Below are positions 10,876 through 48,858 of a stretch of DNA of 64,000 bases, in pieces. The stretch spans positions 2,762 through 66,761 of the forward strand of contig SVTB01000001.1 in the NCBI GenBank assembly GCA_015064015.1, given 5' to 3'. Source of the stretch: Oscillospiraceae bacterium (GTDB lineage: Bacteria > Bacillota > Clostridia > Oscillospirales > CAG-272). Every line of letters begins with the position of its first letter. The stretch's first letter is position 1. The position numbers and the translations under genes were made by a program. The notes below the pieces were generated by a model. The model saw nothing but the letters and a program-made list of their open reading frames with translations. It did not search any database and was not told the DNA's origin.

Positions 10876-10955
10876 GATTGGGTCTCCTGTTTCGTTTTAT
10901 TCCAAAAAATTTTCAAATTTAATCACGGCCACATTGCGGCATCGTAACTATGAAT

Positions 10956-10984
10956 AATATACCATATTTTATATCGGCTGTCAA
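10956..10984 (-). promoter_or_regulatory. sigma-A type promoter of the GH78-like/GH4 operon
   Basis: Minus strand reads TTGACA, 17 nt (ending TGG), TATATT, about 80 nt upstream of ATG 10875. Confidence 0.6.
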
Positions 10985-11145
10985 TATATTTGGGTAAATT
11001 TCGCCATATAGCCCTTAAAATTTTCCAAGGCATTGGAACAAAAAATTTCCAAAATCCTCAGATTATTCATGATGCGGTCATGTTCTTGTGCTATCATAAA
11101 AAGGAATCCTCCCAACGCCGCCAAAACCTTCGGAAAGGAGACCCT

Positions 11146-12591: not shown

Positions 12592-12639
12592 TGTACAAAA
12601 ACACATAGCCATCATTTAACTTTTTGTATATATTAACCG

Positions 12640-12668
12640 TTGAAAATGAATGAGTTGTATGATATAAT
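12640..12668 (+). promoter_or_regulatory. sigma-A type promoter of the amino-acid ABC operon
   Basis: TTGAAA, 17 nt, TATAAT. Inverted repeat TGCAT-attc-ATGCA at 12676-12689 lies just downstream and is a possible operator. Confidence 0.6.
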
Positions 12669-12716
12669 GTTGGCGTGCATATTCATGCAATCATTATTCA
12701 TTAAGGAGTAAAGAAA

Positions 12717-13559: not shown

Positions 13560-13596
13560 TCACGGTGGCATTCCGAAAACTCTTTTGAAAGCACCC

Positions 13597-13628
13597 GAAT
13601 GGGACGGGCAACCGTCCCATTCTTTCTA
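13597..13628 (+). terminator. intra-operon hairpin/partial terminator after the binding-protein gene
   Basis: Stem GAATGGGACGG gcaa CCGTCCCATTC followed by TTTCT, 38 nt after the stop at 13559 and upstream of the permease gene. Confidence 0.65.
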
Positions 13629-13771
13629 TGGATATCTTTGAAGCTTCGCGGCCAAAATCCTTGACCGTCAAGCTTTGCAGATATCACAAAGCTTCTCTTG
13701 AAACCCTATCGTCGAAAAACGACAAGACAACTTTAAAGCAGCCCATAGTCTTACGAAAGGAATGCGAAAGC

Positions 13772-20792: not shown

Positions 20793-21779
20793 TCAGGTAT
20801 CCAACAGATGGCAAGCCGCGAAGTGGCCGGGCTCGTATTCACGGTATACAGGCACGTCGGTCTTGCATCTCTCGGTGGCGTGGGGACAACGGGTATGGAA
20901 GCGACAACCCTTGGGAGGATTGGCGGGCGAGGGAATGTCTCCCTTCAGCACGATGCGCTCCATCTTCTTGTCGGGATCGGGGTTGGGAATGGCGGAAAAC
21001 AGTGCTTGGGTATAGGGATGCAGGGGATTAGAGAAGATATCTTTCTTATTACCAAACTCCACCATACTACCCAAATACATAACACCGATCTTGTCAGAGA
21101 TAAACTTAACCACCGACAGGTCGTGGGAAATGAACAGATAGGTTAGGCCCCTCTCTTTCTGCAGCTTTTTGAGCAGATTAATGATCTGTGCCTGAATGGA
21201 CACGTCCAGCGCCGACACAGGCTCGTCGCACACCACCAACTTGGGGTTGACGGACAAGGCGCGAGCAATACAGATTCTCTGACGCTGACCGCCCGAAAAC
21301 TCATGGGGATAGCGCTCGTAGTAATAATCGCGGAGACCGCATTGCTCCATGAGCTTGAGAACGTAATTCTTTACCTCGAAGGGGGGAACGATCTTATGCA
21401 CCCTGACGGGCTCAGACAGAATATCGCCTACGGTGGCTCTGGGCGGCAGGGAGGAATAAGGATCCTGGAAAATAATCTGCATCTCGGTGCGCAAGGAACG
21501 CATCTGAGAATTTTTATAGTTGGTGATATCCTTGCCGTCAAAAATGATCTGTCCTCCGCTGGCGGGATGGAGCTTTAAGATGGTACGTCCCATGGTGGTC
21601 TTACCGCAACCCGATTCTCCGACGATACCCAAGGTCTCGCCCGGGTGGAGCTCGAAGGACACGTTATCCACGGCGATGAGCTCTTGCTCTACCTTACCCA
21701 TGAGAGACTTCTTGATGGGAAAGGCTTTTCTTAAATTGCGCACCTCCAGAATGGGGGCATCATTCATATGATCAGCCAT
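20793..21779 (-). CDS. oligopeptide/dipeptide ABC transporter ATP-binding protein (OppF/DppF type)
   Basis: 328 aa. Walker A GESGCGKTT, signature FSGGQRQRI, Walker B VCDEPVSALD. C-terminal oligo_HPY-type tail GCRFHTRCPHATERC..ACHL. Confidence 0.92.
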   Translation of the reverse strand: MADHMNDAPILEVRNLRKAFPIKKSLMGKVEQELIAVDNVSFELHPGETLGIVGESGCGKTTMGRTILKLHPASGGQIIFDGKDITNYKNSQMRSLRTEMQIIFQDPYSSLPPRATVGDILSEPVRVHKIVPPFEVKNYVLKLMEQCGLRDYYYERYPHEFSGGQRQRICIARALSVNPKLVVCDEPVSALDVSIQAQIINLLKKLQKERGLTYLFISHDLSVVKFISDKIGVMYLGSMVEFGNKKDIFSNPLHPYTQALFSAIPNPDPDKKMERIVLKGDIPSPANPPKGCRFHTRCPHATERCKTDVPVYREYEPGHFAACHLLDT

Positions 21780-22995
21780 GATACTCCTCCTCTCCGTACA
21801 GGTGACAAGACACGAAATGGGTGGGGCTGACTTGGATCATCCCGGGATAATCCCCCGAACACTTGCGTATACACTTGTCACAGCGCTCCTTGAAATAGCA
21901 ATGGTTGGGCATATTCACAGGGTTAGGGACATTGCCGGGGATGTTGAACAGCGTATCGGAATCCGAGTCCATGGTGGGCTTGGATTTTTGCAGACCGATG
22001 GTGTAGGGATGGCGGGGATCGTGGAAGATCTCCTGCACGGTTCCCTTCTCAATGACACGGCCGGCGTACATGACCACAACATAATCCGCCATTTCCGCGA
22101 TCACGCCAAGATCGTGGGTGATGAGCATAATGGATCCGTTGATTTTGTCCTTGAGGTCGCGAAGCAGATCCAGAATCTGCGCCTGAATGGTTACATCCAA
22201 GGCAGTAGTAGGCTCGTCTGCAATAATAAGGCGGGGATTGCAGGCCAACGCCATGGAAATCATGACACGCTGACGCATACCGCCCGACAACTCGTGGGGG
22301 AAGGCATCGTACACCCGCTCCGGGGCGGCGATACCTACCAGCTTGAGCATTTCCATGGAGCGGTTCTTGGCCGTCTCCTTGGTGGCACCGGGGGTATGGA
22401 TAAAGGTGACCTCGTCCAGCTGGTTACCAATGGTAAACACGGGGTTGAGGGAGGTCATGGGCTCCTGGAAGATCATGGAGATCTGGCGGCCGCGGATACG
22501 ATGAATCTCGCTCATGGGCATTTCCGCAATATCAAACACCTTGTCCTCCATCTCGTAGATGGGGTTACCGTTGGCATCCTTTTCCCCCGTGGGAATGGTA
22601 TTGCCGTGGGCATCACGCTTGAAATCGTGGGAATTGAAACGGATATGGCCGGAATAGATCTGACCTTGGGGCCCTTGGAGCAGGCGCATCACCGACATAC
22701 TGGTGACAGACTTACCACATCCCGACTCGCCTACGACGCCCACCACGGCATTACGGGGTACATCGAAAGACACGCCATTGACGGCCTTGACCACACCCTG
22801 ATCTGTGAAGAAGTAGGTGTGTAGATCCTCGATCTCCAAAATATTAGAAGAATCCCGCATCGCGGTCACATACTCGAATTCCTGCGCCCTGCGATACTTT
22901 TTTTTCTCTAACTCGTTCATGATCTTACGGTTAGACTTAGCAATAGCACGAATCTCTTTGCCGGATAAATAATGAGACTGTTTCTTTTCTGCCAT
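21772..22995 (-). CDS. oligopeptide ABC transporter ATP-binding protein (OppD type) with an N-terminal extension and an internal insertion
   Basis: 407 aa. Walker A GESGCGKSV, signature LSGGMRQRV, Walker B IADEPTTALD. About 50 aa of basic N-terminal extension. About 30 aa inserted after the Q-loop region (NSHDFKRDAHGNTIPTGEKDANGNPIYEMED). Cys-rich tail CYFKERCDKCIRKC. Confidence 0.9.
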   Translation of the reverse strand: MAEKKQSHYLSGKEIRAIAKSNRKIMNELEKKKYRRAQEFEYVTAMRDSSNILEIEDLHTYFFTDQGVVKAVNGVSFDVPRNAVVGVVGESGCGKSVTSMSVMRLLQGPQGQIYSGHIRFNSHDFKRDAHGNTIPTGEKDANGNPIYEMEDKVFDIAEMPMSEIHRIRGRQISMIFQEPMTSLNPVFTIGNQLDEVTFIHTPGATKETAKNRSMEMLKLVGIAAPERVYDAFPHELSGGMRQRVMISMALACNPRLIIADEPTTALDVTIQAQILDLLRDLKDKINGSIMLITHDLGVIAEMADYVVVMYAGRVIEKGTVQEIFHDPRHPYTIGLQKSKPTMDSDSDTLFNIPGNVPNPVNMPNHCYFKERCDKCIRKCSGDYPGMIQVSPTHFVSCHLYGEEEYHG

Positions 22996-22998
22996 GGT

Positions 22999-24093
22999 TT
23001 ACCTCCTCATCTTGGGGTCAAGGGCATCTCGCAGGCCATCGCCGACAAAGTTAAAGCCAAGCACGGCAATGATGATGCAGATACCGGGAGGTCCCCATAC
23101 GTTAAAGTAGTTTTTCAGAATATTGGGATCCTCTGCCACAATGTTAATCATGGTTCCCCAGGCAGCGTAAGGCGCGCGGACGCCCATGTTCAAGTAGGAG
23201 AGGGAAGCCTCATACAGGATCATGCTACCCAAAGACAGAGTCATAGACACAATGAGCTGGGGCATGACATTGGGGATCAGGTGCTTGAATATTTTACGAG
23301 GCACCGAATAACCCATCGCCTCAGCGGCCACCATGTATTCCTGCTCACGCAAGGACAGGATTTGGCCGCGCACCAAGCGGGCCGTACCCGGCCAGGAAAA
23401 CAGCGTCAGATAGGCCATCAGGTAGTAAATACGGTGCTGAGATTCCACGTCAGCGGCATCCAGCAGCGTACCGATGATCAACAAAATGGGGAATCCGGGC
23501 AGGCACATCAAAACGTCGCAAACTCTCATGATGACATTGTCCACCACGCCTCCGAAATAGCCGGCAATACCGCCGAAGACGATACCGAACAACGTGATGG
23601 CAAACACAGCGATAAAGCTGACCATCAAAGAGATACGCCCACCATACATGAGACGGGTAAAGACATCTCGACCGTACTTGTCCGTACCCAGGAAATGTCT
23701 TCCGTCGGGCTTGGCCAATGAGTTAACACCCTTGCCGGTTTCGACTACCTGGATGAAGGTATACTCTTCCCCGTCCACAGTAAAGGTAACCTCCTGCTGG
23801 GTGATCTCCAGCTTGCCCTCGTCCTGCTGCGTCTCACCCCAGGCGGTATACACCAGAGGGCCCAACCAGCAGAAGATGAATAGGCCGACCACCATCACCA
23901 ATCCCACAACGCTCAGTTTGGAACGGAAGAAACGGCGCATGACCATGCGACCGGGAGACATCAGGCGTACATTTTTGTCCAAAGGCTCGGTGTCCTCAAG
24001 GGTATCCGGGGTTTTCAGAAGTTCCTCGGCTACGGCCTCGGTCTGCGCGGGATATTTATTTGATTGACTCATATCTCTCGCCTCCTTAACCAA
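22999..24093 (-). CDS. oligopeptide ABC transporter permease (OppC type)
   Basis: 364 aa. OppC_N-like extracytoplasmic loop (HFLGTDKYGRDVFTR), then a BPD_transp_1 core with AAEAMGYS. 8-nt overlap with the upstream gene. Confidence 0.9.
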   Translation of the reverse strand: MVKEARDMSQSNKYPAQTEAVAEELLKTPDTLEDTEPLDKNVRLMSPGRMVMRRFFRSKLSVVGLVMVVGLFIFCWLGPLVYTAWGETQQDEGKLEITQQEVTFTVDGEEYTFIQVVETGKGVNSLAKPDGRHFLGTDKYGRDVFTRLMYGGRISLMVSFIAVFAITLFGIVFGGIAGYFGGVVDNVIMRVCDVLMCLPGFPILLIIGTLLDAADVESQHRIYYLMAYLTLFSWPGTARLVRGQILSLREQEYMVAAEAMGYSVPRKIFKHLIPNVMPQLIVSMTLSLGSMILYEASLSYLNMGVRAPYAAWGTMINIVAEDPNILKNYFNVWGPPGICIIIAVLGFNFVGDGLRDALDPKMRR

Positions 24094-25078
24094 GCTTAAC
24101 TCTGGGATCTACCACTGCATACATCAGGTCTGCCAACAGCACACCCAGCACGCTGAGTAGCGCCAGGAACATATTGTAGCCCATGATGAAGGGGATGTCC
24201 GCCACAATCATGGCCTTGTAAGCGATGTTACCGATACCGGGCAGGTCAAAGACCTGCTCGGTAATGATAGCACCCGAAAACAGCGACGGCAGAAGTCCTG
24301 CCAAAGAGGTGACCAAAGGAATGAGAGTATTACGAAAAGCGTGCTTGTAAATAACCTTGCTCTCCTTCAGGCCCTTGGCGCGTGCTGTACGGATATAATC
24401 CGAATTCAGCACCTCCAGCATATTGGTGCGGGTCATTCTCATACGGGCGCCGATACTTAGAATGACCACCGTCAAAACAGGAATAAACATATGCCTGAGG
24501 TAATCAAGGAAGAGAGACACGCCCGTGTAGGATTGTGTGGCATCCACCAGGCCCGACGGTGGGAACCACCCCATCTTATTGGCAAGCAGATCCTTCAGCA
24601 CTTGTCCAAAGAAGAACGCGGGCAAGGAAATACCCACCATGACGAGCACCGTCACAAGGTAATCGCGGAAGGAATACTGATGGGTCGCGGCGGTGATGCC
24701 CAAGGGAATGGCGATCATAAACTCAAAGATCGTTGCAATAAAAGCCACCGCGAAAGAAATTCCCATATGATCGCGGATAACGTCAATGACAGGGGAGCCG
24801 TACTTAAAACTGGTACCGAAATCAAAGCGACACAGCTTTACAAGCCAGTTGCCGTAGCCCTTGATGATACCGATGAAGCTGTCGTCTTCCAAGCCGTAGA
24901 GAATCTTCATGTTCTCCACCGTTGCCTCGTCGATAACAGCTCCGCCCTGGTTCATGGCGGCCACCTTGTCTTCAATGAAGTTCACGGGCATGGATCTGAC
25001 CAACACGTAGATGATCAGAGACACCCCCAAAAGGATCAGCACCGACAGGGCCAATCTTTTAATAATGTATTTAATCAT
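24086..25078 (-). CDS. oligopeptide ABC transporter permease (OppB type)
   Basis: 330 aa. MIKYIIKRLALSVLILLGVSLIIYVL is a typical OppB N-terminus. DYIRTARAKGL EAA loop. Confidence 0.92.
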   Translation of the reverse strand: MIKYIIKRLALSVLILLGVSLIIYVLVRSMPVNFIEDKVAAMNQGGAVIDEATVENMKILYGLEDDSFIGIIKGYGNWLVKLCRFDFGTSFKYGSPVIDVIRDHMGISFAVAFIATIFEFMIAIPLGITAATHQYSFRDYLVTVLVMVGISLPAFFFGQVLKDLLANKMGWFPPSGLVDATQSYTGVSLFLDYLRHMFIPVLTVVILSIGARMRMTRTNMLEVLNSDYIRTARAKGLKESKVIYKHAFRNTLIPLVTSLAGLLPSLFSGAIITEQVFDLPGIGNIAYKAMIVADIPFIMGYNMFLALLSVLGVLLADLMYAVVDPRVKLG

Positions 25079-25104
25079 AATTCATTTCTCCCGACAGGTT
25101 AGTA

Positions 25105-27684
25105 TCAGTCGGCGAATTCGATTTCCCAAATACGATCCAGAGGAGAGGTGTAGGGGTTGAGATCAGCGGCGCTGGGAATAGAATCAGCCTTGATGATCTT
25201 TGCGTCGTAAGCATACAATACCTTTCTCTGGTAAACAGGCAGTTCCACAGCCAAATCCAGCACCTTGCTCATAGCCTGCTTGTAAAGGTCGGTACGGATG
25301 GTTTTATCTTCGGTCTCGCGGGCGCTGTCAATGAGCTCACTGAGGGTATTCAAGATCTGAGTCTCCTCAGGATAGGAGGCAGGAGATGCCAGAATCTCAC
25401 GGTAACCCCAAGCCAGCGTGCTGGTGGCAGAAGAGTTTTTGTGGTAAACCTGATACATATCGGGGTCAATGGTGGAGCCCCAAGCGGCGGCCCAAACAGA
25501 CAGAGAACCGGTGGAGAGCTTGGTCAAAGCCTGGGTGTCGGGCACCACTTCGATATCCCAACCACACTCATTGAGCAGATCAGCGGCGGTCTGGAAGGTC
25601 TGGTAAGTAGGGTGCTCGGTCAGGTTGGCACCTGCAATGGTAAAGTCGATGGACAAAGAAGCGTCACCTGCGGAAACGCCGGCAGCCTCCATGTAGTCCA
25701 AAATGGCCGTCTTGGCCTCTTCTCTGTTGAAGCGGATGGCAGGATAGCTGTGGAAGTTATCACGGCTGTTATTACCGCTGTCATCCTTGGGATAAGCCCA
25801 AGAAACGGTGGACATAGGCCAATAGATAGTCTCAGCCGTACCGGTGGAATAGTAGGACAGGGCCATGCTGGTATCCATAGCTGTCATAATGGCCTTACGG
25901 ATATTGATGTTGGGCACCTTGCCTGCGTTGATACCGATATAGCCGTAACCCAGCTGATCGGTGTAAGCCTTTTCGATCCCCTTGGAAGCCATGCCGTTGA
26001 TACGGTCGATATTATCCTGGGTAAACTGGGGAGTTACGAAGTGAACCGAGCCGGACTCCAAAGCGTTCAGGGCGTTAGCGGCGCTGACTACCTGATATCT
26101 GATCTTCTCGATCTTGGGCTGACCCATGAGGAAGTGCTGGCTGGCCTTGAAGTAAACCACGTTGTTGCTGAAGAACTCGGTGCCGGAGGGGTTGTCGCCG
26201 TTCTGGCTGTTGGTAGCCACGTACGCGCCTGCACCCATGGGAACCTTGATGTTACGAGAGGACTGAAGCACGTCGGTGTGGAACTCAAAGGATCCGTATG
26301 CCACGCCGAACTTGTTGTTGGGAATGTCTACTTCGTAGCCCTCAGCGTAGTAATGCTGAGGAGCCACGGCGAAAGCAAAGTTCCAAATCGCCTTGGGGTC
26401 AACACCGTTGATGGTGATTTCCAAAACGTCGTATTCGCCTTCGTTTTTAACAGTACCGTCAGCATTGTGCTCGTGAGCCACGGTGTAGGTGCCGCCGTTG
26501 GCGGTAACGGAGGTTTTATCAGAGGTGTGGCCCAGGGAAACGATACCCGAAACGTTGGGGATGGCCAGCTGGCCGTCTTTTACGTTCTCGTGGAGGATAA
26601 CTTCCTTGGCCTGAGCGGTGTACTCGGTCATGAGCTTCTGCGCGGTAGCCCAGTACATGAGGATGAGGTGCAGCTCCTGCTCCACCTTAGAATCGTATAC
26701 ATACTTGATAGCGGATTCCTTATCCTTTACCACATCGGGGTTGTAGAGACGGATCACTTCCTTGATCTTGGACTTGATATCCTTGTTATTCTCGTCCTTC
26801 TCGTATTCGATATTGACGTAGCCCTCGGCATACATGAAGGAGGTCACCTCATCAAACTCACCGGTGGACTTATAGGGCTCCTCCAGGTAAGCTTCCTTGG
26901 CAGAAGCATAGTCGGTGTTCAGCTCTTCCTTAAAGTACTGCAGGGTCTTTTCATAGTCGGCCTTCAGTTGATCCACAGTAACGGAGGCGGCATCGTTGGC
27001 TACAGCCTCCTTATAACCGTTGGACAGGCTATGGGTGTTGATAGCGTCGATCATCTGTGCATAGGTAGCGCTGTAAGAGCCCTGGGTTTGGGTTTTGCCT
27101 ACCTGCATATACAGGTTGATGAGCTCGTTGATTCTGTTCTTGGCACGAGCGGTAGCATTTTGGGAAATGGTATCGTCGGTGTTGGTAGAACCCGAACCCA
27201 GCACCTGAGTACGGTAATCCTGCAAACCTACGATATCGGTGGAATACATGGTGTTGGAGCCGGTGTATACGGGATCCAGATACACATACAGGTTGAACAG
27301 AACGTCCTCGATGGTCAAGGGGTGACCGTCTGAGAACTTGATGCCGTTCTTGATAACGAAGGTATAGGTGGTCTGATCCTTCGCGGAGTCATAGTTCACG
27401 GCGTAATCCTTGACAACTACGGCGTGTCCGTCACCACAAGCAACCTTAACCTCGCCGCCCACATAATCCGTGGTCAGCATACTGATCTGGGTCATGCCCA
27501 CGATGGTACCGTCGGGGGCGGTGGTCGAATAGAAGGGGTTGAACAAGCCGTCCAGCTCTTCGGTCATGATAACCAGCGCGTCGGGCTTGCCTTTGCTCTG
27601 CTCCCCTGCGCAGGATGCAAACATGGCCACACAGCCAAGAAGCATGGACAAGCAAAGGACCAGACTGATGATTCTTGTCTTCAT
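25105..27684 (-). CDS. unusually large (859 aa) family-5 (OppA-like) substrate-binding lipoprotein
   Basis: ORF 25105..27729 trimmed to ATG 27684, with GGAGG upstream. Lipobox MFASCAG. The SBP_bac_5-like N-terminal region (FNPFYSTT..KFSDGHPLTIEDVLFN) is interrupted by a helical Lys/Glu-rich insertion of about 230 aa. Confidence 0.85.
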   Translation of the reverse strand: MKTRIISLVLCLSMLLGCVAMFASCAGEQSKGKPDALVIMTEELDGLFNPFYSTTAPDGTIVGMTQISMLTTDYVGGEVKVACGDGHAVVVKDYAVNYDSAKDQTTYTFVIKNGIKFSDGHPLTIEDVLFNLYVYLDPVYTGSNTMYSTDIVGLQDYRTQVLGSGSTNTDDTISQNATARAKNRINELINLYMQVGKTQTQGSYSATYAQMIDAINTHSLSNGYKEAVANDAASVTVDQLKADYEKTLQYFKEELNTDYASAKEAYLEEPYKSTGEFDEVTSFMYAEGYVNIEYEKDENNKDIKSKIKEVIRLYNPDVVKDKESAIKYVYDSKVEQELHLILMYWATAQKLMTEYTAQAKEVILHENVKDGQLAIPNVSGIVSLGHTSDKTSVTANGGTYTVAHEHNADGTVKNEGEYDVLEITINGVDPKAIWNFAFAVAPQHYYAEGYEVDIPNNKFGVAYGSFEFHTDVLQSSRNIKVPMGAGAYVATNSQNGDNPSGTEFFSNNVVYFKASQHFLMGQPKIEKIRYQVVSAANALNALESGSVHFVTPQFTQDNIDRINGMASKGIEKAYTDQLGYGYIGINAGKVPNINIRKAIMTAMDTSMALSYYSTGTAETIYWPMSTVSWAYPKDDSGNNSRDNFHSYPAIRFNREEAKTAILDYMEAAGVSAGDASLSIDFTIAGANLTEHPTYQTFQTAADLLNECGWDIEVVPDTQALTKLSTGSLSVWAAAWGSTIDPDMYQVYHKNSSATSTLAWGYREILASPASYPEETQILNTLSELIDSARETEDKTIRTDLYKQAMSKVLDLAVELPVYQRKVLYAYDAKIIKADSIPSAADLNPYTSPLDRIWEIEFAD

Positions 27685-27728
27685 TTTTCTTTCCTCCAAA
27701 TATAATAATACAAAATAATAACGGTACA

Positions 27729-36860: not shown

Positions 36861-39677
36861 ATGAAAGCGAACAAAAAAATTCTCGCTCTGCTGCTCGCGC
36901 TGATCATGGCTTTGTCGGCTATGGTTACGGTTTTCACGGGCTGCACGGGCTCCGCCGACCCCGGCGAAACTTCCACGGGTACTCAGGAAACTCAGCCTTC
37001 CGAGACCACCCCGCCTTCCTCCGACAACAAGGTCAGCTATAGTGTCAAGCTGCAGACCATGGGCGGTATGCTCATGGAGGGCATCAACGTCTACGTATAC
37101 AGCAACGAGGCACTGGACGAAATGGTGGAGTATACCGCCACCGACAAAAACGGTGTCGCGCAGTTCTCTCTCAAGTACAGCAGCGACTACCGCATCGTGC
37201 TTTCGGGCATTCCCGCAGGCTATAACGTAGAAGACAGCTATACCTTCGACACATCCCGCAACGCGAATATCACCCTCTCCTCCTCGGTTATCTCCGATAC
37301 CGACCTGAGCGGCGTCAACTACAAGCTGGGCAGCGTCATGCACGACTTCACCGTAACGGATTCCGACGGTGTCTCCCACACCCTCTCCAAGATCCTCAAG
37401 GAGAAGAAGGCCTGCGTGCTGAACTTCTGGTATACCACCTGCTCCTATTGCGTAGAGGAATTCCCCTATCTGAACGCCACCTATGAGGCTTACAAGGATA
37501 AGGTCGAGGTTCTCGCTCTGAACAACTACAGTAGCGATGACGAGGAGTCCGTCAAGCTGTTCAAGTCCTCTTACGGTCTTACCTTCCCCATGGCCAAGGA
37601 CTACTCCGCTTTGGGTAACGCCATCGGCCTGGAAGGCTATCCCACCACCGTGGTCATTGACCGCTACGGTGTCATCGTGCTTTCCATCACCGGCGGCACC
37701 TCCGAGGCCGTGTTCCGCGCCGCCTTTGAATATGTTTCCTCCGACGAGTACCAGCAAAAGCTGTTCCAAAACATGGAGGATCTGGTTCCCGCAGAAAAGC
37801 CCAATATTCAAATGCCTTCCTCCGATGAGATGGCCGCCGTTCTCAATAAGGGTGACATCACCGTTACCTATGCCCCCGAGACCGCGATGCCCGATGCCGA
37901 ATATTCCTGGCCCTTCATCATCGGCGAAAAGAACGGAACCGCTTGCGTCTACCCATCCAATGCGGGTAAGGATAATTCCTTCGCTATGCTGTATGCCAAC
38001 GTAGAGCTGAAGGCGGGTCAGGCTTTGGCCTTTGACTTCCTGTCCTCCTCTGAATCCGCCGCCGACATTCTGTTCGTGCTGGTGGATCGAAAGGATGTCT
38101 ACCAGATCTCCGGCGAAAGCGCCGATTGGGCCACCTGTTATCCCTTCGTAGCCATTGAGGACGGCACCTACGAGCTCGCGCTCTGCTATTTCAAGGATGA
38201 ATCCACCAATGTAGGCGACGATACAGTTTATCTGAAGGATCTGCGCGTTGTCTCCGCCGACAGCATCAATGCTCCCACTTATATCCCCCGCTTTGCCGCC
38301 AACCACCTCCGCGAGGATGGTTTTGGCTACGAGAGTTATGTTTCCGTCGTTTATAACGAGGCTGACGGCTACTATCACGTGGGCACCGCGGACGGACCCA
38401 TCCTTTTGGCTGACCTTATGGGCTCCACTCGCTTCTCCGGAGAGTCCGTCTACAGCCTTGCCTACAACGGCAAAATCATCGTCGAGGGCAAAAACTATTA
38501 CGAAGCCATTCTTCCTTACTGCACTATGGCCTCCAACGCCACCGTCAACGGCCTGTGCAGCGTTACCAAGGAGCTTGCCGAGCTTCTCAAGATCGTGGCT
38601 GTTGCCGAGGGTATCGAGACCGGCAACGAGAATCAGTGGTTGCAGATGTGCTGCTACTACGATGCCTACGGCACGAACGGCGTTCAATTCCCCAGCCCCG
38701 TGTTAGGTCTCTCTGCAGAGACAGCCTACAAGGCACAGCTGGGTGACGAAAACTATGTAACCTACACCCGCGTGATCATGCCCCGTGGTCTGTGGTATGA
38801 ATTCATTCCCACCCAATCCGGCGCATACCGCATCACCTCCCACAGCGATATTTTGGTGGAAGGCTGGATCTTCATGGCTGACAAGACGCAGTATTATGAG
38901 TACGGCGGCGGTGAGCGCCTGTACTTTATGACCCAGCCCGAGGCTTATGCCACAAACGTCTCCATGGTCGTCTATATGGAGGCCGGCACTCCCTATTATA
39001 TCGACATCGCCTACGGCGACGTATATCAGGTTGGCACTTTCAACTTCAGCGTAGAATATTTGGGCGAGAGCTACAAGCAGTTTACCGCCGCTTCACCCGG
39101 ATTCTACACCGTACCCGATGACGGTGAAATCTCCGATGATCCCGCTGTCATTGAGGCTCTCGGCATTGACGTTATGCTGGGCGCCGATGGCTACTATCAT
39201 GAAAAGCTGGCCGACGGCTCCGAGGGCTCCATCGTATATGCCGACTTCACCCAGGCCTCCGTGCTCTTCAATATGAGCATCAACGAAATGATCGAGCTTG
39301 GCGCCTTCGACTTCTCCCGTACCGAGACGGATCAGCAGGTTCAGACCTATATCAATCAGTACGGTGACAAGACTAAGGAAAAGCTCAAGGAAATCTACGG
39401 CGATAGCTTCGACGAGTGGGCCGAATTTGTTAAGCTGGATGAATGTTTGGCAGGCATCACCCATGGCGCGGGCAAAAATATGACCGATGCCATCAAGGCT
39501 TTCGCGGCTTTGGCCATTACTGATGAATCCACCCCTGAGCTGGTGGGCTGTGTGCCCGTCAACGCCGAGCTCATGGAGCTTCTTCAGGCTCTCGTAGGAA
39601 AATATTCCTTCGGTGTGGAAAACGCTTGGCTTAAGGTGTGCTACTACTACAGAAACGTGAATCACGTTGGCGCATAA
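36861..39677 (+). CDS. 938-aa lipoprotein: CarboxypepD_reg-like domain, TlpA/ResA-like thioredoxin domain (CSYC), beta-sandwich/PPC-like domains and two copies of an unrecognised Cys-containing module
   Basis: Lipobox VFTGC. KVSYSVKLQT..DKNGVAQFSL has a prealbumin-like pattern. ACVLNFWYTTCSYCVEEFPYL..GYPTTVVIDRYG is the TlpA family pattern. Module copies end QWLQMCCYYDAYG and AWLKVCYYYRNV. The opposite-strand 614-aa ORF is a shadow. Confidence 0.88.
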   Translation: MKANKKILALLLALIMALSAMVTVFTGCTGSADPGETSTGTQETQPSETTPPSSDNKVSYSVKLQTMGGMLMEGINVYVYSNEALDEMVEYTATDKNGVAQFSLKYSSDYRIVLSGIPAGYNVEDSYTFDTSRNANITLSSSVISDTDLSGVNYKLGSVMHDFTVTDSDGVSHTLSKILKEKKACVLNFWYTTCSYCVEEFPYLNATYEAYKDKVEVLALNNYSSDDEESVKLFKSSYGLTFPMAKDYSALGNAIGLEGYPTTVVIDRYGVIVLSITGGTSEAVFRAAFEYVSSDEYQQKLFQNMEDLVPAEKPNIQMPSSDEMAAVLNKGDITVTYAPETAMPDAEYSWPFIIGEKNGTACVYPSNAGKDNSFAMLYANVELKAGQALAFDFLSSSESAADILFVLVDRKDVYQISGESADWATCYPFVAIEDGTYELALCYFKDESTNVGDDTVYLKDLRVVSADSINAPTYIPRFAANHLREDGFGYESYVSVVYNEADGYYHVGTADGPILLADLMGSTRFSGESVYSLAYNGKIIVEGKNYYEAILPYCTMASNATVNGLCSVTKELAELLKIVAVAEGIETGNENQWLQMCCYYDAYGTNGVQFPSPVLGLSAETAYKAQLGDENYVTYTRVIMPRGLWYEFIPTQSGAYRITSHSDILVEGWIFMADKTQYYEYGGGERLYFMTQPEAYATNVSMVVYMEAGTPYYIDIAYGDVYQVGTFNFSVEYLGESYKQFTAASPGFYTVPDDGEISDDPAVIEALGIDVMLGADGYYHEKLADGSEGSIVYADFTQASVLFNMSINEMIELGAFDFSRTETDQQVQTYINQYGDKTKEKLKEIYGDSFDEWAEFVKLDECLAGITHGAGKNMTDAIKAFAALAITDESTPELVGCVPVNAELMELLQALVGKYSFGVENAWLKVCYYYRNVNHVGA

Positions 39678-39692
39678 ATGATACCACTTACA

Positions 39693-39726
39693 GGGCAGAT
39701 CACTTGTGTGATCTGCCCCGCTTTTG
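39693..39726 (+). terminator. intrinsic terminator after the 938-aa lipoprotein gene
   Basis: Stem GGGCAGATCAC ttgt GTGATCTGCCC followed by CGCTTTTGG, 16 nt after the stop. Confidence 0.75.
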
Positions 39727-39777
39727 GTTGCTACTGCCTTTATGGCGTGGATAATTTTGTAAATTTTTTTAAAACGC

Positions 39778-39806
39778 TTGCAATCCGGCGCGTAAAGTGC
39801 TATAAT
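39778..39806 (+). promoter_or_regulatory. sigma-A type promoter of the second lipoprotein gene
   Basis: TTGCAA, 17 nt, TATAAT, 52 nt upstream of ATG 39858. Confidence 0.65.
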
Positions 39807-39857
39807 AAGGCGCATATGTCTCAAAACAAGCAATCGAAAAAGTTAGGAGGATCCCCC

Positions 39858-41120
39858 ATGAGGCACTTTTTCCGCCCTGCAACCCTGTTAACTGCGGGCT
39901 TGCTGGCCGTCACCCTGCTCACGGGTTGCCAAGCCGAAACCGATCTCCCAAATGAATCTATGTCCTCTACGGAAACTGACATACAAACCGAAGCCGCCGC
40001 ATCTACGTTGGATTACACCGTCACCGTTTTGGATTATCAGGGAACCCCCCTGTCCGACGTGGTCGTTACCATCCTCAAAGCCGGCGAGGAAGTTAAGAAA
40101 AACGTCTCTAAGGCCGACGGCACCGCCAAATTCAAGCTGGATGCTGACAACTACGAGGTCTCCGTCACCTCTACGGCAGGGGATTTCTACTACGATGCCC
40201 AAACGGCAGTTCTCTCCCCCAACGCGACAAGCCTGACCCTGACCCTTTACAGTAAGGCAAGCACAGAACACGCCGTCACCATTTGGCCCGCAGGCGGCGA
40301 AAGGAACGCACTCCCCGTAGGCGAAGGCGCTACCTTTGTAGCCCTCGACGGCGGCATGACCTACGTGGTCTTCCGTCCCGAACGCGACGGTGTCTACGAG
40401 ATCTCCTATTTGGCCGACGGCAACATTGATCTGGGTTATTACGGCTCTCCTATGGTGGTCTTTGACACCAAGATGTTGGAAACCATCGACAATAAAATAA
40501 TTCTCTCCGTTCACGCCTCCAGCATCAACACAGAAGGCGCCACCGCCATGTTCGTGTTCGGTTTAGAGCCCGATGCCGTGGAAACCGACGGCTGTATCGT
40601 CACCGTCACCCGCACGGGGGATCCCGAAAAAACCCCCGCCGATGAGCCTTGGATCGAGTATAGGCCCACCCAGGTCAAGGCCTATGAGGGTACTGTGAGC
40701 GGCACATTTAAAGATATTGACGTAACCAATCCCTCCGTGACTGTTGTCTATAACGAGACTGACGGTTACTACCATTATGGCACCGCCGACGGTCCCGTGG
40801 TGTTCATCCGTATCACCACCGACAGCCCATATTTGGCCGCGCTGACCACGGTGGCTGAAAAGAGCCGCGTGGGTGTTTATCAGTACGATGAAAACGGCAA
40901 GTTCACAGGCAAGGAAAGCTATCACAATATGATCGCCGCCTATGCAGAGATTGTCAACGGTGACGGTGTCTGCCCCCTGACCCCCGAGCTGGAGTACATG
41001 ATCAAGACCTTTGGCGAATATCAAAAATGGTGGGATCTGTCCTTTAGCGGCAACATCTTCCAAGATAAGATCGTCGCTCCCGAAACAGCCTGGCTGTTTA
41101 TCTGCGGTTACTACGCGTAA
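39858..41120 (+). CDS. 420-aa lipoprotein: CarboxypepD_reg-like domain, PPC-like beta-sandwich and one copy of the Cys-containing module
   Basis: ORF 39678.. trimmed to ATG 39858, with AGGAGG 7 nt upstream. Lipobox LLTGC. VVYNETDGYYHYGTADGPVVF...GVCPLTPELEYMIK...AWLFICGYYA is paralogous to the upstream gene. Confidence 0.85.
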   Translation: MRHFFRPATLLTAGLLAVTLLTGCQAETDLPNESMSSTETDIQTEAAASTLDYTVTVLDYQGTPLSDVVVTILKAGEEVKKNVSKADGTAKFKLDADNYEVSVTSTAGDFYYDAQTAVLSPNATSLTLTLYSKASTEHAVTIWPAGGERNALPVGEGATFVALDGGMTYVVFRPERDGVYEISYLADGNIDLGYYGSPMVVFDTKMLETIDNKIILSVHASSINTEGATAMFVFGLEPDAVETDGCIVTVTRTGDPEKTPADEPWIEYRPTQVKAYEGTVSGTFKDIDVTNPSVTVVYNETDGYYHYGTADGPVVFIRITTDSPYLAALTTVAEKSRVGVYQYDENGKFTGKESYHNMIAAYAEIVNGDGVCPLTPELEYMIKTFGEYQKWWDLSFSGNIFQDKIVAPETAWLFICGYYA

Positions 41121-41184: not shown

Positions 41185-42636
41185 ATGAACAAGAAAACTC
41201 TCACAGGGCTTCTGTCCGTGCTGTGCGTGCTTCTCTGCTCTTTGGTGATCTTCTGCGCTTGCACCGGCGAAAACACCCCCGCCGAGACCAATGCGACTGA
41301 AGCACCCACCGAGGCACCCGCAACCGAGACCGTTCCCGAAACCAACGAAGAAACCAATCCCGAGACCGACCCCGAGACCGTCGTCGACGGTAAGGTCACC
41401 TACACCATCATCGTCGTTGACGCTGACGGCAACCCCGTAGAGGGTGTTGAAGTGCAGATGTGCGACGTTGACGGCACCTGCCTCCTGCCCGTAAAGACCG
41501 ACGCCAACGGTGTCGCCACCTTTGAAAAGGACGAGGCTACCTACTACGTCACCATCGCCGCTTGCCCCGAAGGCTTTGTCGCTGACAGCGAGACCAAGCA
41601 CAACTTCGCCGAGGGTACTACCGAGATGACCGTGACCATCGAGAAGGCCGCTGCAGAGCAGCCCTCCGAGGAGCCCACCGAAGAGCCTACCGAGGAGCCT
41701 ACGGAAGCTCCCACCGAGCCCGAGAAGTATCCCGCATGGGAGGATGCCAAGGACGTTGTCACTCACCAGTCCTTTGACCAGCTCTACACCGGCACCGGCA
41801 CGGCTGACGAGGCCACCAACGGCGGTCTGAATCTGTTTACCCCCGGCGCTTCCGCTGATTGGGATCGCATCGCTGACCTTACCAATTCCGATGCCACCGC
41901 CCTCACCTACTGGGGTTGGGTCGGCGTGAAGGGTACAGTTGGACAGTTCGGCTACATGATCGACGACAATACCCCCATCTACAACGACGAATGGACTCAT
42001 GCCACTGAGCAGCCCGTCATTGACGCCGCTCTCGCCTTCGGTGGTGACACCGGTTCTCGCATGAAGATCGCCATCGACCTCTCCGGTCTGATCGGCGAGC
42101 ACACCGTTCGCGTACTGTACAAGTCCGTTGACGGCGCAGAAATCACCCTTTGCCTGTTCACCGTCAAGCTGGCTCTTCCCGAGGTATATTACGCATCCAA
42201 CCACTCCTCCGACATTCTCCAGATCATTAGCACCGATCTCGTTCCCTCTGAACACGTTTACACACCCGGTACTTACAACGAGTGGGAAGAAAAGACCTTC
42301 ACCCTGAAGGTAGGCCAGACCGGCGGCTTCTGGGATCTGGGCTTTGTGGCTCTGAACACCGACGTTTATGAGTTTGGTTATCTCTTTGGCGGCGCCAGCC
42401 CTCTGAATAACGGCGCGTACTTCTTCCCCGGTGCCGCTTACACCGCTATGGTAACCGCTGATCAGCTGGCAACCGCTCAGGAGCTGGGTTACAGCACTGC
42501 CGGTGCATTCCAGTGCATGTGTGCTGAGGCCGCTCTGGGTGTTGGCGAGAACTATATCCAGGTCGTTGTTAAGCTGAACAACAGCAACGATGAGATTTAT
42601 GTACTCCGCGAGTACACCGTCATCCTCGAAGCTTAA
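41185..42636 (+). CDS. 483-aa lipoprotein: PT/E-rich linkers, CarboxypepD_reg-like domain, C-terminal beta-sandwich-like domains
   Basis: ORF 41170 (TTG) trimmed to ATG 41185, with GGAGG 8 nt upstream. Lipobox IFCAC. GKVTYTIIVVDADGNPVEGVEVQMCD..TDANGVATFE. Linker EQPSEEPTEEPTEEPTEAPTEPE. Confidence 0.85.
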   Translation: MNKKTLTGLLSVLCVLLCSLVIFCACTGENTPAETNATEAPTEAPATETVPETNEETNPETDPETVVDGKVTYTIIVVDADGNPVEGVEVQMCDVDGTCLLPVKTDANGVATFEKDEATYYVTIAACPEGFVADSETKHNFAEGTTEMTVTIEKAAAEQPSEEPTEEPTEEPTEAPTEPEKYPAWEDAKDVVTHQSFDQLYTGTGTADEATNGGLNLFTPGASADWDRIADLTNSDATALTYWGWVGVKGTVGQFGYMIDDNTPIYNDEWTHATEQPVIDAALAFGGDTGSRMKIAIDLSGLIGEHTVRVLYKSVDGAEITLCLFTVKLALPEVYYASNHSSDILQIISTDLVPSEHVYTPGTYNEWEEKTFTLKVGQTGGFWDLGFVALNTDVYEFGYLFGGASPLNNGAYFFPGAAYTAMVTADQLATAQELGYSTAGAFQCMCAEAALGVGENYIQVVVKLNNSNDEIYVLREYTVILEA

Positions 42637-42773: not shown

Positions 42774-43250
42774 ATGGAAACAGCAACCAAAGTCTCCGCC
42801 GTCGGAGAAGAAAAGAAATCCCCGGCCGTGGAATTAGCCACCGAGCTCTACAAAAACATTACCATGGGCAGCGATGCCATCATTCACCTGCTCCCCAAGG
42901 TTAAGGATAACGGCATGAAGACCTCTATGACCGCCTCTATGTGCTATTACGAAAAAGCCGCAGGCAAGGTCAAAGCATTTCTCAAGGAACACGGTGCCGA
43001 AGCCAAGGAAGAGCCGCTCATGACCCGTATGGCCTCCCGTATGGGTATCGTCATGAATACTGCCTTGGATGCCACGTCCTCTCATATCGCCCAAATGCTC
43101 ATTGAGGGCTCTACCATGGCTATCACCGAAGCCACCCGCCTGTGCCACAGATTTGAGAGACAGGCGGGTTGCGAAGAGATGCTGACCGTGGCAAAAGAGC
43201 TGGCGGAATTTGAGCAGGCTCACATTGAAAAGCTCAAGTCTTTCTTGTGA
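42774..43250 (+). CDS. hypothetical all-helical cytoplasmic protein (158 aa)
   Basis: GAAAGGA upstream of the ATG. Helix-rich sequence with no signal peptide. I recognise no family with confidence. Confidence 0.6.
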   Translation: METATKVSAVGEEKKSPAVELATELYKNITMGSDAIIHLLPKVKDNGMKTSMTASMCYYEKAAGKVKAFLKEHGAEAKEEPLMTRMASRMGIVMNTALDATSSHIAQMLIEGSTMAITEATRLCHRFERQAGCEEMLTVAKELAEFEQAHIEKLKSFL

Positions 43251-45730: not shown

Positions 45731-45825
45731 CAGGATTGGGTAATCTTTCCCTGCTTGTCACAAACGACACGTTCGAATTTTAAAACATATGTATGCCGCC
45801 GCAAAGCGGCGGAATGGAGATTTAT

Positions 45826-48800
45826 ATGGCAGTATTCAATCCGCAATTTAAAATCAACCAAATGGCAAAGGATATGGGTCTGAAGAGCAAAGATCTGACA
45901 GAACTGTTGGCCGCCAAAGGTATTTCGGACGTCAAGACGCAGAAGTCTCTGTCCGAAAGAGAATTTAATTTGCTGTTATCCTCCCTCACCGAGGCCAATC
46001 AGGTAGACAATATCTACGATTACATGGATGGAGTCACCCGTATTCCCTCCAAGAAAGCCGCAGAAAAGGCCGCTAAGATGGCCGAAGAGAAGGCCGCTGC
46101 CGAAAAGGCCGCTGCTGAGAAAGCCGCCGCCGAAAAGGCTGCCGCTGAAAAGGCCGCCGCTGAGAAAGCTGCCGCCGAAAAGGCTGCCGCTGAAAAGGCC
46201 GCTGCCGAAAAAGCTGCCGCCGAAAAGGCTGCCGCTGAAAAGGCCGCTGCCGAAAAAGCCGCTGCTGAGAAGGCTGCCGCCGAAAGAGCCGCTGCTGAGA
46301 AGGCTGCTGCCGAAAAGGTTGCCGCCGAGAAGGCTGCCGCTGAAAAGGCTGCCGCCGAAAAAGCTGCCGCCGAGCGCGCCGCCGAGAAGGTCGCCGCGGA
46401 ACGTGCCGCCATCGAGCGCACCGCCAAGGCATTGGCCGCTCAGCGTCAAGCCACCAACCAAAACAATAAAACCAATGACCGCCGCCAGGATCGCCCCGCT
46501 CAGGATCGTCCCCGCAATAGTGAGACGCCCCGTACCCCTGCGGCCGGTGGACGTGATACCCGTCCCGCGCAAGGACAGGGGCAGAAAAACGATCGCTTTG
46601 CTCAGGCAGGTGCCGGCCGTCCCGATAACCGTCAGGACAGCCGTGACAGCCGTGATAATCGCGACAACCGCGATAGCCGCGATAATCGTAGCCAGCAGAA
46701 AAACGATCGGGCCCAGAATGCGCGTTCCGACTATCGTCAGGACAATCGCATGGATGGCCGTGAGCGCGGCGAGGACTACGTACCCAGCACACCCCGTGAG
46801 CGCTTCCAGGTGCAGGCCATTGTTCGTGAGCAGACCCCCAAGGGCGGTATCCAGCAGACCAAGCCCCGCGGTGCTACCCGTGTGGTTGACACCCGCTCTG
46901 CCGACAGCGTGGATCTCTCCAAGTATGATGAGCGTTTGGACTCTTTCGTGTCTGAGCGCGTACAGGATACCCACGGCGGAAGCCAGAAGATCGGCAAGAA
47001 GCCCGGTCAGCAAGCAAACGGCCGTCCCGGCTCCAAGAAGCAGCAGCCTCAGCCCATGATGAAGGGCGGCAAGCCCGTGCCCGGCAAGAAACAGGCACCC
47101 GTCAAGAAGCAGCCCCTTAACGTGGAAATTCCCGACGAGATCGTGGTCAGCGATTTGGCCGCCCGTCTCAAGGTTACGGTTGGCGAAGTCGTCAAGCGTC
47201 TCATGATGATGGGTATGATGGTCACCGTCAACCAAACCGTAGACTTTGACACCGCCGCCATCGTGGCAGACGAGCTTGGTGCTGTGGTTACCAAAGAAGT
47301 GGTGGTTACCATCGAAGAAAAGCTGTTTGACACCACCGAGGACACCGAGGATATGCTGAAGCCCCGCGCCCCCGTTGTGTGCGTCATGGGCCACGTTGAC
47401 CACGGTAAGACTTCCCTTTTGGACGCCATCCGTCACACCCACGTTACCGCAGGCGAGGCCGGCGGTATCACTCAGCACATCGGTGCTTACCGTGTGCAGA
47501 TCAATGACCAAGACATTACCTTCCTGGACACCCCCGGTCACGAGGCCTTCACCGCTATGCGTGCCCGCGGTGCTCAAGCAACCGATATCGCCATCCTTGT
47601 GGTAGCCGCAGACGATGGTATCATGCCTCAAACCGTTGAGGCAATCAACCACGCCAAGGCCGCAGGCATTGACATTATCGTGGCCATCAACAAGATGGAT
47701 AAGCCCGGTGCTGATCCCGAAAATATCAAGCAGGAGCTCACCAAATATGATCTCGTACCCGAAGAGTGGGGCGGCGACGTCATTTGCGTTCCCGTATCGG
47801 CTTTGACCCGTATGGGTATTGACGACCTGCTGGAAAATGTCCTTCTGGTAGCCGAGGTTAAGGAGCTCAAGGCCAACCCCGCAAGACGCGCCAAGGGTAT
47901 CGTCATCGAAGCCAAGCTGGATAAGGGCCGCGGCCCTGTTGCCACCGTTCTTGTACAGAACGGTACGCTGAAGAGCGGTGATATTGTCATCGCAGGCACC
48001 GCTGTGGGTCACGTCAGAGTAATGAGCGACCATAACGGCCGCACTGTTAAGGTAGCAGGCCCCTCCGTTCCTGTAGAAATTACCGGCCTTTCCGACGTGC
48101 CGGACGCAGGTGATGAGTTCGAGGCAGTTGTCGACGAGCGTATGGCTCGCGAACTGGCCGAACAGCGCCGCGCCAAAGCCAAGGAAGAGGTCTTTAAGGC
48201 CAACGCGAGAGCGAACCTGAACGATCTGTTCAGCCAGTTGAATGCGGGTATCAAGGATCTCAACATCATCGTTAAAGCGGACGTAGACGGTACGGTGGAA
48301 GCCGTGAAGGCTTCTCTCATGAAGCTGTCCAACGAAGAAGTCCGTGTCCGCGTAATCCACGCCGCTTGCGGCGGTATCACCGAGGGCGACGTCACCTTTG
48401 CCGCCGCCTCCAACGCCATCATCGTCGGATTTAACGTCCGTCCCGACCGTCAAGCTTTGGATTCTGCCGACAGACAGAATGTGGAAATCAGAACCTACCG
48501 TGTCATTTACGAGTGCCTGGAGGAAATCGAGGCCGCTATGAAGGGTATGCTGGCGCCCAAGTTCCGTGAGAATCTTTTGGGCCACGCCGAGGTTCGCCAG
48601 ACTATCCACGTGCCCAACGTGGGTACCATCGCCGGTTCTTATATCACCGACGGTAAGATCATCCGTTCCGCCCAGATCCGTATCGTCCGCGACGGTATCG
48701 TGATCTTTGAAGACAAGATCAGTTCTCTCCGCCGCTTCAAGGACGACGTCAAGGAAGTGGCCACCGGCTATGAGTGCGGTGTCGGTCTTGACCGCTTTAA

Positions 48801-48858
48801 CGACATCAAGGTCGGAGACGTACTGGAAGCCTTCGTCATGGAAGAAGTTCCTCAGTAA
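45826..48858 (+). CDS. infB: translation initiation factor IF-2
   Basis: ORF 45793.. trimmed to ATG 45826, with GGAGA upstream. G domain [26 protein letters not shown]. Long low-complexity N-terminal region. Confidence 0.95.
46057..46410 (+). repeat. in-frame 15-nt tandem repeat inside infB encoding (AAEKA)n
   Basis: About 23 consecutive units GCC GCT GCC GAA AAG with synonymous variation. Followed at about 46624-46695 by a DNR/DSR repeat ([18 protein letters not shown]). Confidence 0.9.

Follow-up and report, generated by a model that had tools for sequence, protein, structure and literature searches.

A compact domain with no recognized family shares clostridial lipoproteins with a ResA-like thioredoxin beside a surface protease locus

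Introduction

Extracytoplasmic thioredoxin lipoproteins are known as small enzymes of one domain that serve defined clients, for example, in maturing cytochrome c, in making the spore cortex, or in repair by Msr. Here, we describe a locus in which such a thioredoxin is part of a far larger protein. It lies in a stretch of 64,000 nucleotides (nt) from an Oscillospiraceae bacterium (GenBank assembly GCA_015064015.1, contig SVTB01000001.1, positions 2,762 to 66,761 of the forward strand), which we refer to at its full length as the window. Two adjacent genes, A and B, encode lipoproteins that together carry three copies of a domain that we call MOD, and gene A also encodes the thioredoxin. Like ResA, TlpA, CcmG, and Etrx of Streptococcus pneumoniae, the gene A product is a predicted membrane-tethered extracytoplasmic thioredoxin fold with a CxxC motif in a ResA-like ...C..C..EFPY context. 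However, those proteins are single-domain and ~150 to 190 amino acids (aa) long, whereas gene A adds ~650 aa of arms made of a beta-sandwich and a MOD. To our knowledge, such arms occur in no characterized ResA, TlpA, CcmG, or Etrx member. Also unlike the ResA-type systems, no cytochrome c maturation genes, sporulation context, or CcdA were seen near gene A. The known part of the system is thus an extracytoplasmic thioredoxin lipoprotein; the new part is a large accessory apparatus, containing a domain without a family, in a proteolysis locus that is itself conserved. Searches of the literature for an earlier account of such a system gave nothing relevant.

Two further comparisons are instructive. 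The beta-sandwich that precedes MOD in gene B superposes on the PPC and collagen-binding domains of clostridial and Bacillus collagenases and on the C-terminal domain of Clostridium perfringens enterotoxin (C-CPE). This is a match at the level of the fold only, at ~10% identity, and nothing resembling MOD follows the sandwich in those proteins. The arrangement of the locus recalls the lactococcal prtP/prtM/opp genes, in which maturation of the S8 protease requires a lipoprotein whose gene is transcribed divergently from that of the protease (PMC8037685). Common to both are an S8 protease with PA and fn3_5 domains, a divergent lipoprotein gene, and an oligopeptide ABC importer in one locus. The predicted window lipoproteins differ from PrtM in carrying thioredoxin and MOD and in not being PrsA/PpiC-like, and the putative protease differs from PrtP in adding a very long BspA-type leucine-rich repeat (LRR) region.

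We tentatively favor, at somewhat less than an even chance, a reading in which this locus encodes a surface disulfide reductase whose rigid sandwich-MOD arms serve protein degradation. If the link to proteolysis is functional, gut and rumen anaerobes that forage for protein would seem to do so in part by reductively unlocking disulfide-bonded proteins. More than 1000 proteins of uncultured Clostridia couple a thioredoxin to ~650 residues that databases leave undescribed, including a compact domain without a recognizable structural relative. Our analysis offers a testable role for the many proteins now annotated as "redoxin family" or "hypothetical"; at minimum, MOD merits a domain-family entry.

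Three copies of MOD in two adjacent lipoproteins

When the window is scanned in all six frames with a hidden Markov model (HMM) of the module, three copies of MOD are found and no more. They are listed here with the genes that contain them and with their independent E values (i-E).

36861 to 39677, plus strand: gene A, a 938-aa lipoprotein with an Ig-like domain, a ResA-like thioredoxin, beta-sandwich 1, MOD1, beta-sandwich 2, and MOD2
38325 to 38675, plus strand: MOD copy 1, gene A aa 490 to 606 (117 aa; HMM i-E 7.7e-44)
39147 to 39665, plus strand: MOD copy 2, gene A aa 764 to 936 (173 aa; HMM i-E 5.8e-34)
39858 to 41120, plus strand: gene B, a 420-aa lipoprotein with an Ig-like domain, a PPC/collagen-binding-like sandwich, and MOD3
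40719 to 41117, plus strand: MOD copy 3, gene B aa 288 to 420 (133 aa; HMM i-E 2.2e-40)

An earlier reading of the letters alone, hereafter the original prediction, had proposed three copies of an unrecognized module in these two genes. The scan recovers all three in nearly the same places with refined boundaries, and the motifs quoted in the original prediction are present in the copies. No fourth copy, for example in gene C, the next lipoprotein gene downstream, was found by the six-frame scan. Copies 1 and 3 share 31.5% identity over 130 aa (BLASTP, E 1e-12). Within the segment encoding their VVYNE-DGYYH-GTADGP core, 43 of 54 nucleotides are identical (79.6%; 38346 to 38399 versus 40743 to 40796), in agreement with the ~80% first estimated. 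Copies 1 and 2 have diverged beyond the reach of pairwise BLAST. Profiles of their families, drawn from 118 full-length gene A homologs, nevertheless align end to end over 109 columns (hhalign probability 97.2%, E 4e-11) and place a helical insert of ~55 aa within copy 2. A profile made from gene B homologs only recovers copy 1 as well, with an i-E of 2e-10. The three copies are homologous, with a similarity far beyond chance.

A ResA-like thioredoxin and a large clostridial family

The domain that sets gene A apart from gene B is its thioredoxin.

37329 to 37724, plus strand: thioredoxin-fold (Redoxin/ResA-like) domain, gene A aa 157 to 288 (Pfam Redoxin, AhpC-TSA)

A thioredoxin-like domain in the same protein as MOD had been anticipated from the letters, and Pfam confirms it, with Redoxin at E 1.8e-18 (aa 157 to 281) and AhpC-TSA at E 8.7e-17. 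The CxxC motif is C194-S-Y-C197 (nt 37440 to 37451), inside NFWYTTCSYCVEEFPY, and both C194 and C197 are 100% conserved in the 118 gene A homologs. ResA (4nmu) is the top PDB sequence match (E 1.3e-16), and Etrx-type structures (4hqs, 4hqz, and 2yp6) are among the weaker ones. The score against the NCBIfam ResA subfamily is 83.7 bits, under the cut-off of 170. By these comparisons, the domain is ResA-like and not a ResA ortholog. The signal peptide of gene A ends in a lipobox, ...MVTVFTGC28, whose Cys28 is 100% conserved (signal peptide and lipobox as read from the sequence). Gene A has 14 Cys in total (1.5%), a proportion topped only by gene C (2%) among the exported window proteins checked. 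A 614-aa minus-strand open reading frame (ORF; 36843 to 38687) that overlaps gene A was rejected as a shadow ORF, given that the plus-strand frame has thousands of homologs.

The family is large. A word-indexed homolog search with copy 3 alone returned only three fragments, and the family becomes apparent with longer queries and with profiles. The C-terminal 638 aa of gene A have at least 1821 homologs, nearly all of them ~940 aa long; "redoxin family protein [Clostridia bacterium]" is the only name that gene A homologs carry. When the MOD profile was run exhaustively with HMMER against 1.84 billion representatives, it recovered 1392 clusters at E ≤ 1e-3, counted at 50% identity, and 701 at E ≤ 1e-10. 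Most matching proteins have two modules. Among the 150 best family representatives, ~130 carry a thioredoxin domain N-terminal to the modules, so that the association of MOD with thioredoxin first noticed in the window proves to be a general rule. The exact order Ig, thioredoxin, sandwich 1, MOD, sandwich 2, MOD is found in 92 of these 150, and most of the others are variants or fragments of that layout. Six unusually long family members all contain Redoxin/AhpC-TSA. The gene B family comprises at least 146 proteins of 410 to 510 aa, labeled "hypothetical" or "Ig-like domain-containing". Named sources of the family are metagenome-assembled genomes of Clostridia, Eubacteriales, and Oscillospiraceae, one of them from a roe deer cecum, and one Anaeroplasmataceae.

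The set of modules varies between genomes. At locus L006, one of nine loci from other genomes (L001 to L009) compared with the window below, positions 10001 to 14998 encode a 588-aa protein with the layout Ig-sandwich-MOD-MOD, followed by a 1067-aa protein whose N-terminus is A-like (Ig and thioredoxin) and whose C-terminus is B-like (sandwich and MOD).

MOD has no recognizable relative

Neither Pfam nor NCBIfam gave a hit to gene A aa 300 to 938 or gene B aa 140 to 420, even at E ≤ 1. When 20 diverse modules were scanned singly at E ≤ 10, only scattered single matches appeared (best 0.053), none of them consistent. The MOD profile found nothing significant among PDB sequences (best E 0.35). 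The original prediction thus stands in calling the module unrecognized, with no match to a known family in Pfam, NCBIfam, or PDB sequences.

AlphaFold2 (AF2) gave confident models. MOD1 (gene A aa 486 to 610) has a predicted local distance difference test (pLDDT) of 92.6 and a predicted template modeling score (pTM) of 0.85; for gene B aa 140 to 420, the pLDDT is 95.5 and the pTM 0.77, and the linker pLDDT is above 90. MOD1 and MOD3 are modeled with an identical order of elements, namely, three strands, a helix, a hairpin, a helix, a strand, two helices, and a strand. A Foldseek search with the MOD1 model found no neighbor in PDB (best E 3, template modeling [TM] score ≤ 0.2) or in BFVD. With the gene B model, the sandwich alone was matched in PDB, and no listed match covers MOD3. 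MOD is best read as a new, noncatalytic alpha/beta domain of ~115 to 130 aa that folds independently and belongs to no recognized family.

MOD is always preceded by a beta-sandwich domain of a binding type. The three domains in this position in the window are as follows.

37812 to 38297, plus strand: beta-rich domain 1, gene A aa 318 to 479, ahead of MOD1 (no Pfam hit, no family assignment)
38679 to 39137, plus strand: beta-rich domain 2, gene A aa 607 to 759, ahead of MOD2 (tentatively PPC-like; no Pfam hit)
40275 to 40619, plus strand: beta-sandwich of gene B, PPC/collagen-binding-domain-like, gene B aa 140 to 254 (AF2 model and Foldseek)

The gene B sandwich matched the PPC domain of Bacillus anthracis collagenase (5sv5) with a Foldseek E of 7.6e-4, a probability of 1.00, and a TM score of 0.61 on the target. 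Further matches were the collagen-binding domain of ColG (1nqj and 4hpk; TM 0.55 to 0.61) and C-CPE. At the sequence level, Pfam PPC (PF04151) gave no hit to this sandwich at E ≤ 1. The high pLDDT of the linker and the pTM of the gene B model argue for a fixed sandwich-MOD unit, a rigid two-domain arm joined by an ordered linker. Duplication of sandwich and MOD as a unit was considered and is not established: beta domains 1 and 2 of gene A show no detectable similarity (hhalign E 0.054), and domain 2 matches the gene B sandwich only locally, over 23 columns (hhalign probability 80%, E 1.4e-5). Beta-rich domain 1 has a Cys pair of its own, C426/C442 (window 38136 to 38186), conserved at 100% and 97% among homologs.

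Invariant positions of MOD are mostly Gly, aromatic, or aliphatic, and alignments of diverse representatives contain no conserved polar cluster common to the three subtypes (first modules of A-type proteins, second modules, and B-type modules). Positions of this fold-core type are what a structural cap or spacer would show. On that account, the thioredoxin lipoprotein would serve some unrelated pathway of the envelope, such as the repair of oxidative damage, in line with the Etrx-type structures among its weaker PDB matches, and its linkage to protease and Opp genes would be regulatory or coincidental. We consider this improbable. Each subtype has conserved motifs of its own, which suggest specific surfaces (first modules, for example, keep ASN, second modules keep THG.G and PEL.GC, and B-type modules keep WWD); the synteny described below is kept down to 42% identity; and no Msr gene was seen in the loci listed.

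One invariant cysteine and an optional partner

The original prediction had regarded MOD as a disulfide-stabilized extracellular domain family with two conserved Cys. In the window, these are C566 (nt 38556) and C597 (nt 38649) in copy 1, which also contains the DGYYH hairpin, C897 (nt 39549) and C927 (nt 39639) in copy 2, and C372 (nt 40971) and C416 (nt 41103) in copy 3. In close homologs (≥51% identity), each module seems to conserve its two Cys. Diverse family representatives gave the following percentages.

First modules of A-type proteins: C-terminal Cys (WLxxC) 98%; proposed partner 39% (G-x-C)
Second modules of A-type proteins: C-terminal Cys (WLxxC) 91%; partner 63% (G-C, one residue earlier)
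B-type modules: C-terminal Cys (WLxxC) 90%; proposed partner 61%

Copy 2 shows this shift: measured from the conserved Gly and the helix that comes next, its first Cys is displaced forward by one residue (G-C, not G-x-C). Of the two Cys, the C-terminal one is therefore retained in homologs and the partner is not, being frequently absent and shifted by one residue in second modules. Single-Cys first modules make up 31 of 138. Because the partner is missing in 37 to 61% of modules and single-Cys modules exist, the Cys pair is not essential to the fold and does not form an obligatory redox couple. As an extracytoplasmic family new to Pfam and NCBIfam, MOD matches what was first proposed, whereas its stabilization by a disulfide is not general. 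A disulfide may form in many members, including all three window copies, as an optional feature; judging by the alignments, it appears neither to define MOD nor to stabilize it universally.

The models bear on both residues. The invariant Cys follows an invariant Trp and Leu (W, L, and C at i, i+1, and i+4) in a short helix of the MOD1 model, all on the same face, which suggests that it is buried and faces the core. Both Cys lie in short strands (residues 80 to 82 and 112 to 113 of the MOD1 model, and 232 to 234 and 277 to 280 of that containing MOD3), an arrangement compatible with their proximity and no proof of a bond. The C-terminal Cys would then be a core residue, and in some lineages an optional disulfide may tie it to a strand close by.

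A module with one Cys nearly always present and another variable in presence and position could instead be a thiol-redox domain, in which the invariant C-terminal Cys is catalytic or a relay, the second Cys is resolving, and the ResA-like thioredoxin recycles the pair, fed in some genomes by a membrane polyferredoxin-redoxin fusion. All 57 B-family modules with the partner Cys also have the C-terminal Cys, as expected of such a couple, but the partner is kept in six of nine second modules that lack the C-terminal Cys, and there the two are uncoupled. Co-occurrence statistics of this kind are suggestive, are confounded by phylogeny, and are no proof of a disulfide. Also in keeping with a redox role are the near-obligatory fusion or adjacency to thioredoxin, the redox genes at four of the other loci (below), and the Asp and His of DGYYH, which are nearly invariant in first-type and B-type modules. 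However, the His is replaced by Tyr or Arg in ~40% of second modules, and the PDB profile, Pfam, and Foldseek comparisons show no resemblance of MOD to a thiol enzyme, either in sequence or in fold. The modeled position of the Cys, at the C-terminal end of a short helix with a hydrophobic W/L face, would fit a buried core residue and not a nucleophile. Msr and peroxiredoxin enzymes, which come in 1-Cys and 2-Cys variants, resemble MOD in having one invariant and one variable Cys and a link to thioredoxin, which here is a fusion; they differ from it in both sequence and structure, and the apparently buried context of the MOD Cys leaves a resemblance in logic only. We regard a thiol-redox MOD as unlikely.

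The same residues raise the question of a metal site. Asp, His, and Cys are the most conserved polar residues of first-type and B-type modules and could act as ligands in a small metal-binding domain. With the His lost in ~40% of second modules and no similarity to a known metal site in the PDB profile or Foldseek searches, we give this very little credence.

A divergent protease and peptide-uptake operon

Upstream of gene A, on the opposite strand, lies an operon for proteolysis.

29183 to 36550, minus strand: S8 protease gene, 2455 aa (Pfam Peptidase_S8, PA, fn3_5, and BspA-type LRR_5), divergent from gene A
20793 to 29153, minus strand: remainder of the protease operon, encoding a 474-aa protein without a family, an 874-aa OppA-like protein, OppB, OppC, OppD, and OppF

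Pfam supports the Opp assignments (SBP_bac_5, BPD_transp_1, OppC_N, ABC_tran, and oligo_HPY), and the minus-strand operon from 20793 to 36550 is a complete unit for surface proteolysis and peptide uptake. The OppA-like binding protein is unusually long at 874 aa.

A locus search with a single protein had given only three close loci. Across the ten loci compared, an S8/LRR protease lies next to or near the A homolog in nine (the window and L001 to L008), at A identities down to 42%. The lipoprotein gene is divergent from the protease gene in the window, L001 to L003, L005, L007, and L008; in L004 and L006, the two genes share a strand, with the protease gene downstream of the A homolog in L004 and close to it in L006. 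At the tenth locus, L009, shikimate-pathway genes lie upstream of the A homolog, the protease is absent on the visible side, and downstream are a small Ig-like gene and one uncharacterized gene cut by the contig end. A B homolog directly follows A in L001 to L006, with 31 to 35% identity in L004 to L006. An SBP_bac_5 gene accompanies the protease in the window, L005, L007, and L008, and only the window was seen to have a complete Opp operon.

From this setting, we infer a binding role for the arms, their substrate, and a link to proteolysis. In the reading that we favor, that of a surface disulfide reductase, a lipid anchor and an Ig-like stalk would fix the gene A product to the outside of the membrane, with two sandwich-MOD arms behind a ResA-like, reducing-type CxxC thioredoxin, and gene B would supply a further arm in trans. 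The arms would hold an extracellular protein substrate, or the protease complex, close to the thioredoxin site. The thioredoxin would open disulfides of the substrate, the S8/LRR protease would cut it, and Opp would import the peptides, so that the A/B locus would be functionally tied to the divergent protease and oligopeptide importer operon. The three homologous copies, the confident and compact models, the size of the family and its near-constant thioredoxin architecture, a thioredoxin domain closest to ResA with its CxxC...EFPY context, and the protease synteny support this reading, as may, by analogy, the relatives of the sandwich (collagenase PPC, collagen-binding domains, and C-CPE), which are all binding modules.

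Several observations weigh against it. Synteny is an association and not a mechanism. At 90 to 98%, the conservation of the C-terminal Cys is more than one would expect of a residue that only packs the core of an exported domain. The Asp and His of DGYYH, nearly invariant in first-type and B-type modules, could belong to an active or metal site. No electron donor of the CcdA/DsbD type was found among 20 window ORFs scanned with Pfam, a set that does not include every ORF. The recurrence of redox neighbors, with polyferredoxin-redoxin fusions at three loci and a rubredoxin insert in one B homolog, suggests that the cluster may be about electron transfer more than binding.

The fusions combine a Fer4_5 polyferredoxin with Redoxin in a membrane protein and occur with a partner of 250 to 270 aa in L004, L006, and L007.

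L004, 8434 to 9909: Fer4_5 (NapH-like) fusion with a C-terminal Redoxin (WGTWCGPC)
L006, 18296 to 19777: the same fusion
L007, 17890 to 19866: the same fusion

The neighbor of each fusion is a membrane protein without a family. The pair may be a transmembrane electron source; a homolog of the fusion was looked for in the window and is absent. A rubredoxin outside the cytoplasm would be unusual. The B homolog of L005 (13097 to 14554; 485 aa) has a rubredoxin-like insert (YACQTCG...WACPGKCG; Pfam Rubredoxin on record), and its signal peptide contains an RARRG stretch that could be a twin-arginine motif.

These neighbors can be put together as an undescribed electron route to the cell surface of gut anaerobes, running from cytoplasmic ferredoxin-type carriers through the NapH-like polyferredoxin-redoxin protein and the ResA-like thioredoxin to the MOD Cys, with the rubredoxin insert contributing in some B-type proteins. 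MOD would be its thiol-redox end, and disulfide-rich dietary or host proteins would be reduced for the S8/LRR protease and Opp. We think it rather improbable that the locus works in this way.

Of the 21 Cys of the protease itself, nine fall within AFxGCxxL-type LRR motifs. This, with the divergent arrangement of its gene beside the lipoprotein genes (a protease accompanies gene A in nine of the ten loci) and the prtP/prtM precedent (PMC8037685), invites the idea that the three lipoproteins, A, B, and C, help the protease to mature or assemble in the manner of PrtM. In that case, the many single Cys of the LRRs would be kept correctly reduced by the thioredoxin while the protease folds, and the MOD arms would dock on the protease. 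Yet Pfam finds no PpiC/PrsA-type domain in A, B, or C, and none is similar to PrtM; the A homolog of L009 has no protease on the visible side; and three or more large multidomain lipoproteins per locus are many for a dedicated foldase. A maturation role is accordingly one that we doubt, and a surface reductase acting on substrates of the protease remains the reading that we prefer.

Genes B and C and the end of the operon

Genes A, B, and C are codirectional lipoprotein genes. The start of gene B at 39858 has an AGGAGG Shine-Dalgarno sequence upstream, and its signal peptide is closed by a lipobox, ...VTLLTGC24, as read from the sequence. The longest ORF for gene B (39678 to 41120; 480 aa), which starts 180 nt upstream and abuts the gene A stop, was rejected because the signal peptide and Shine-Dalgarno sequence indicate 39858. 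At least one public gene call (P0271) uses the 480-aa version.

41185 to 42636, plus strand: gene C, third lipoprotein gene of the operon, with an Ig-like N-terminal domain and no MOD

The likely start of gene C is the ATG at 41185, with GGAGG ahead of it and a signal peptide ...VIFCAC. The N-terminal Ig-like domains of the three lipoproteins are paralogous (BLASTP, A versus C E 1e-10 and B versus C E 3e-6). This domain is all that gene C has in common with A and B, and its ~300 C-terminal residues are without a family. In the distant loci L004 to L006, the counterpart of gene C is reduced to an Ig-like lipoprotein of 135 to 151 aa.

Between the lipoprotein operon and rimP-nusA-infB lies a gene for a 158-aa protein (window 42774 to 43250) with a weak match to DUF2383 (ferritin-like) and no signal peptide. 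Farther on, infB (45793 to 48858) encodes an IF-2 whose N-terminal region contains a near-perfect (AAEKA)n repeat of ~25 units (46050 to 46450).

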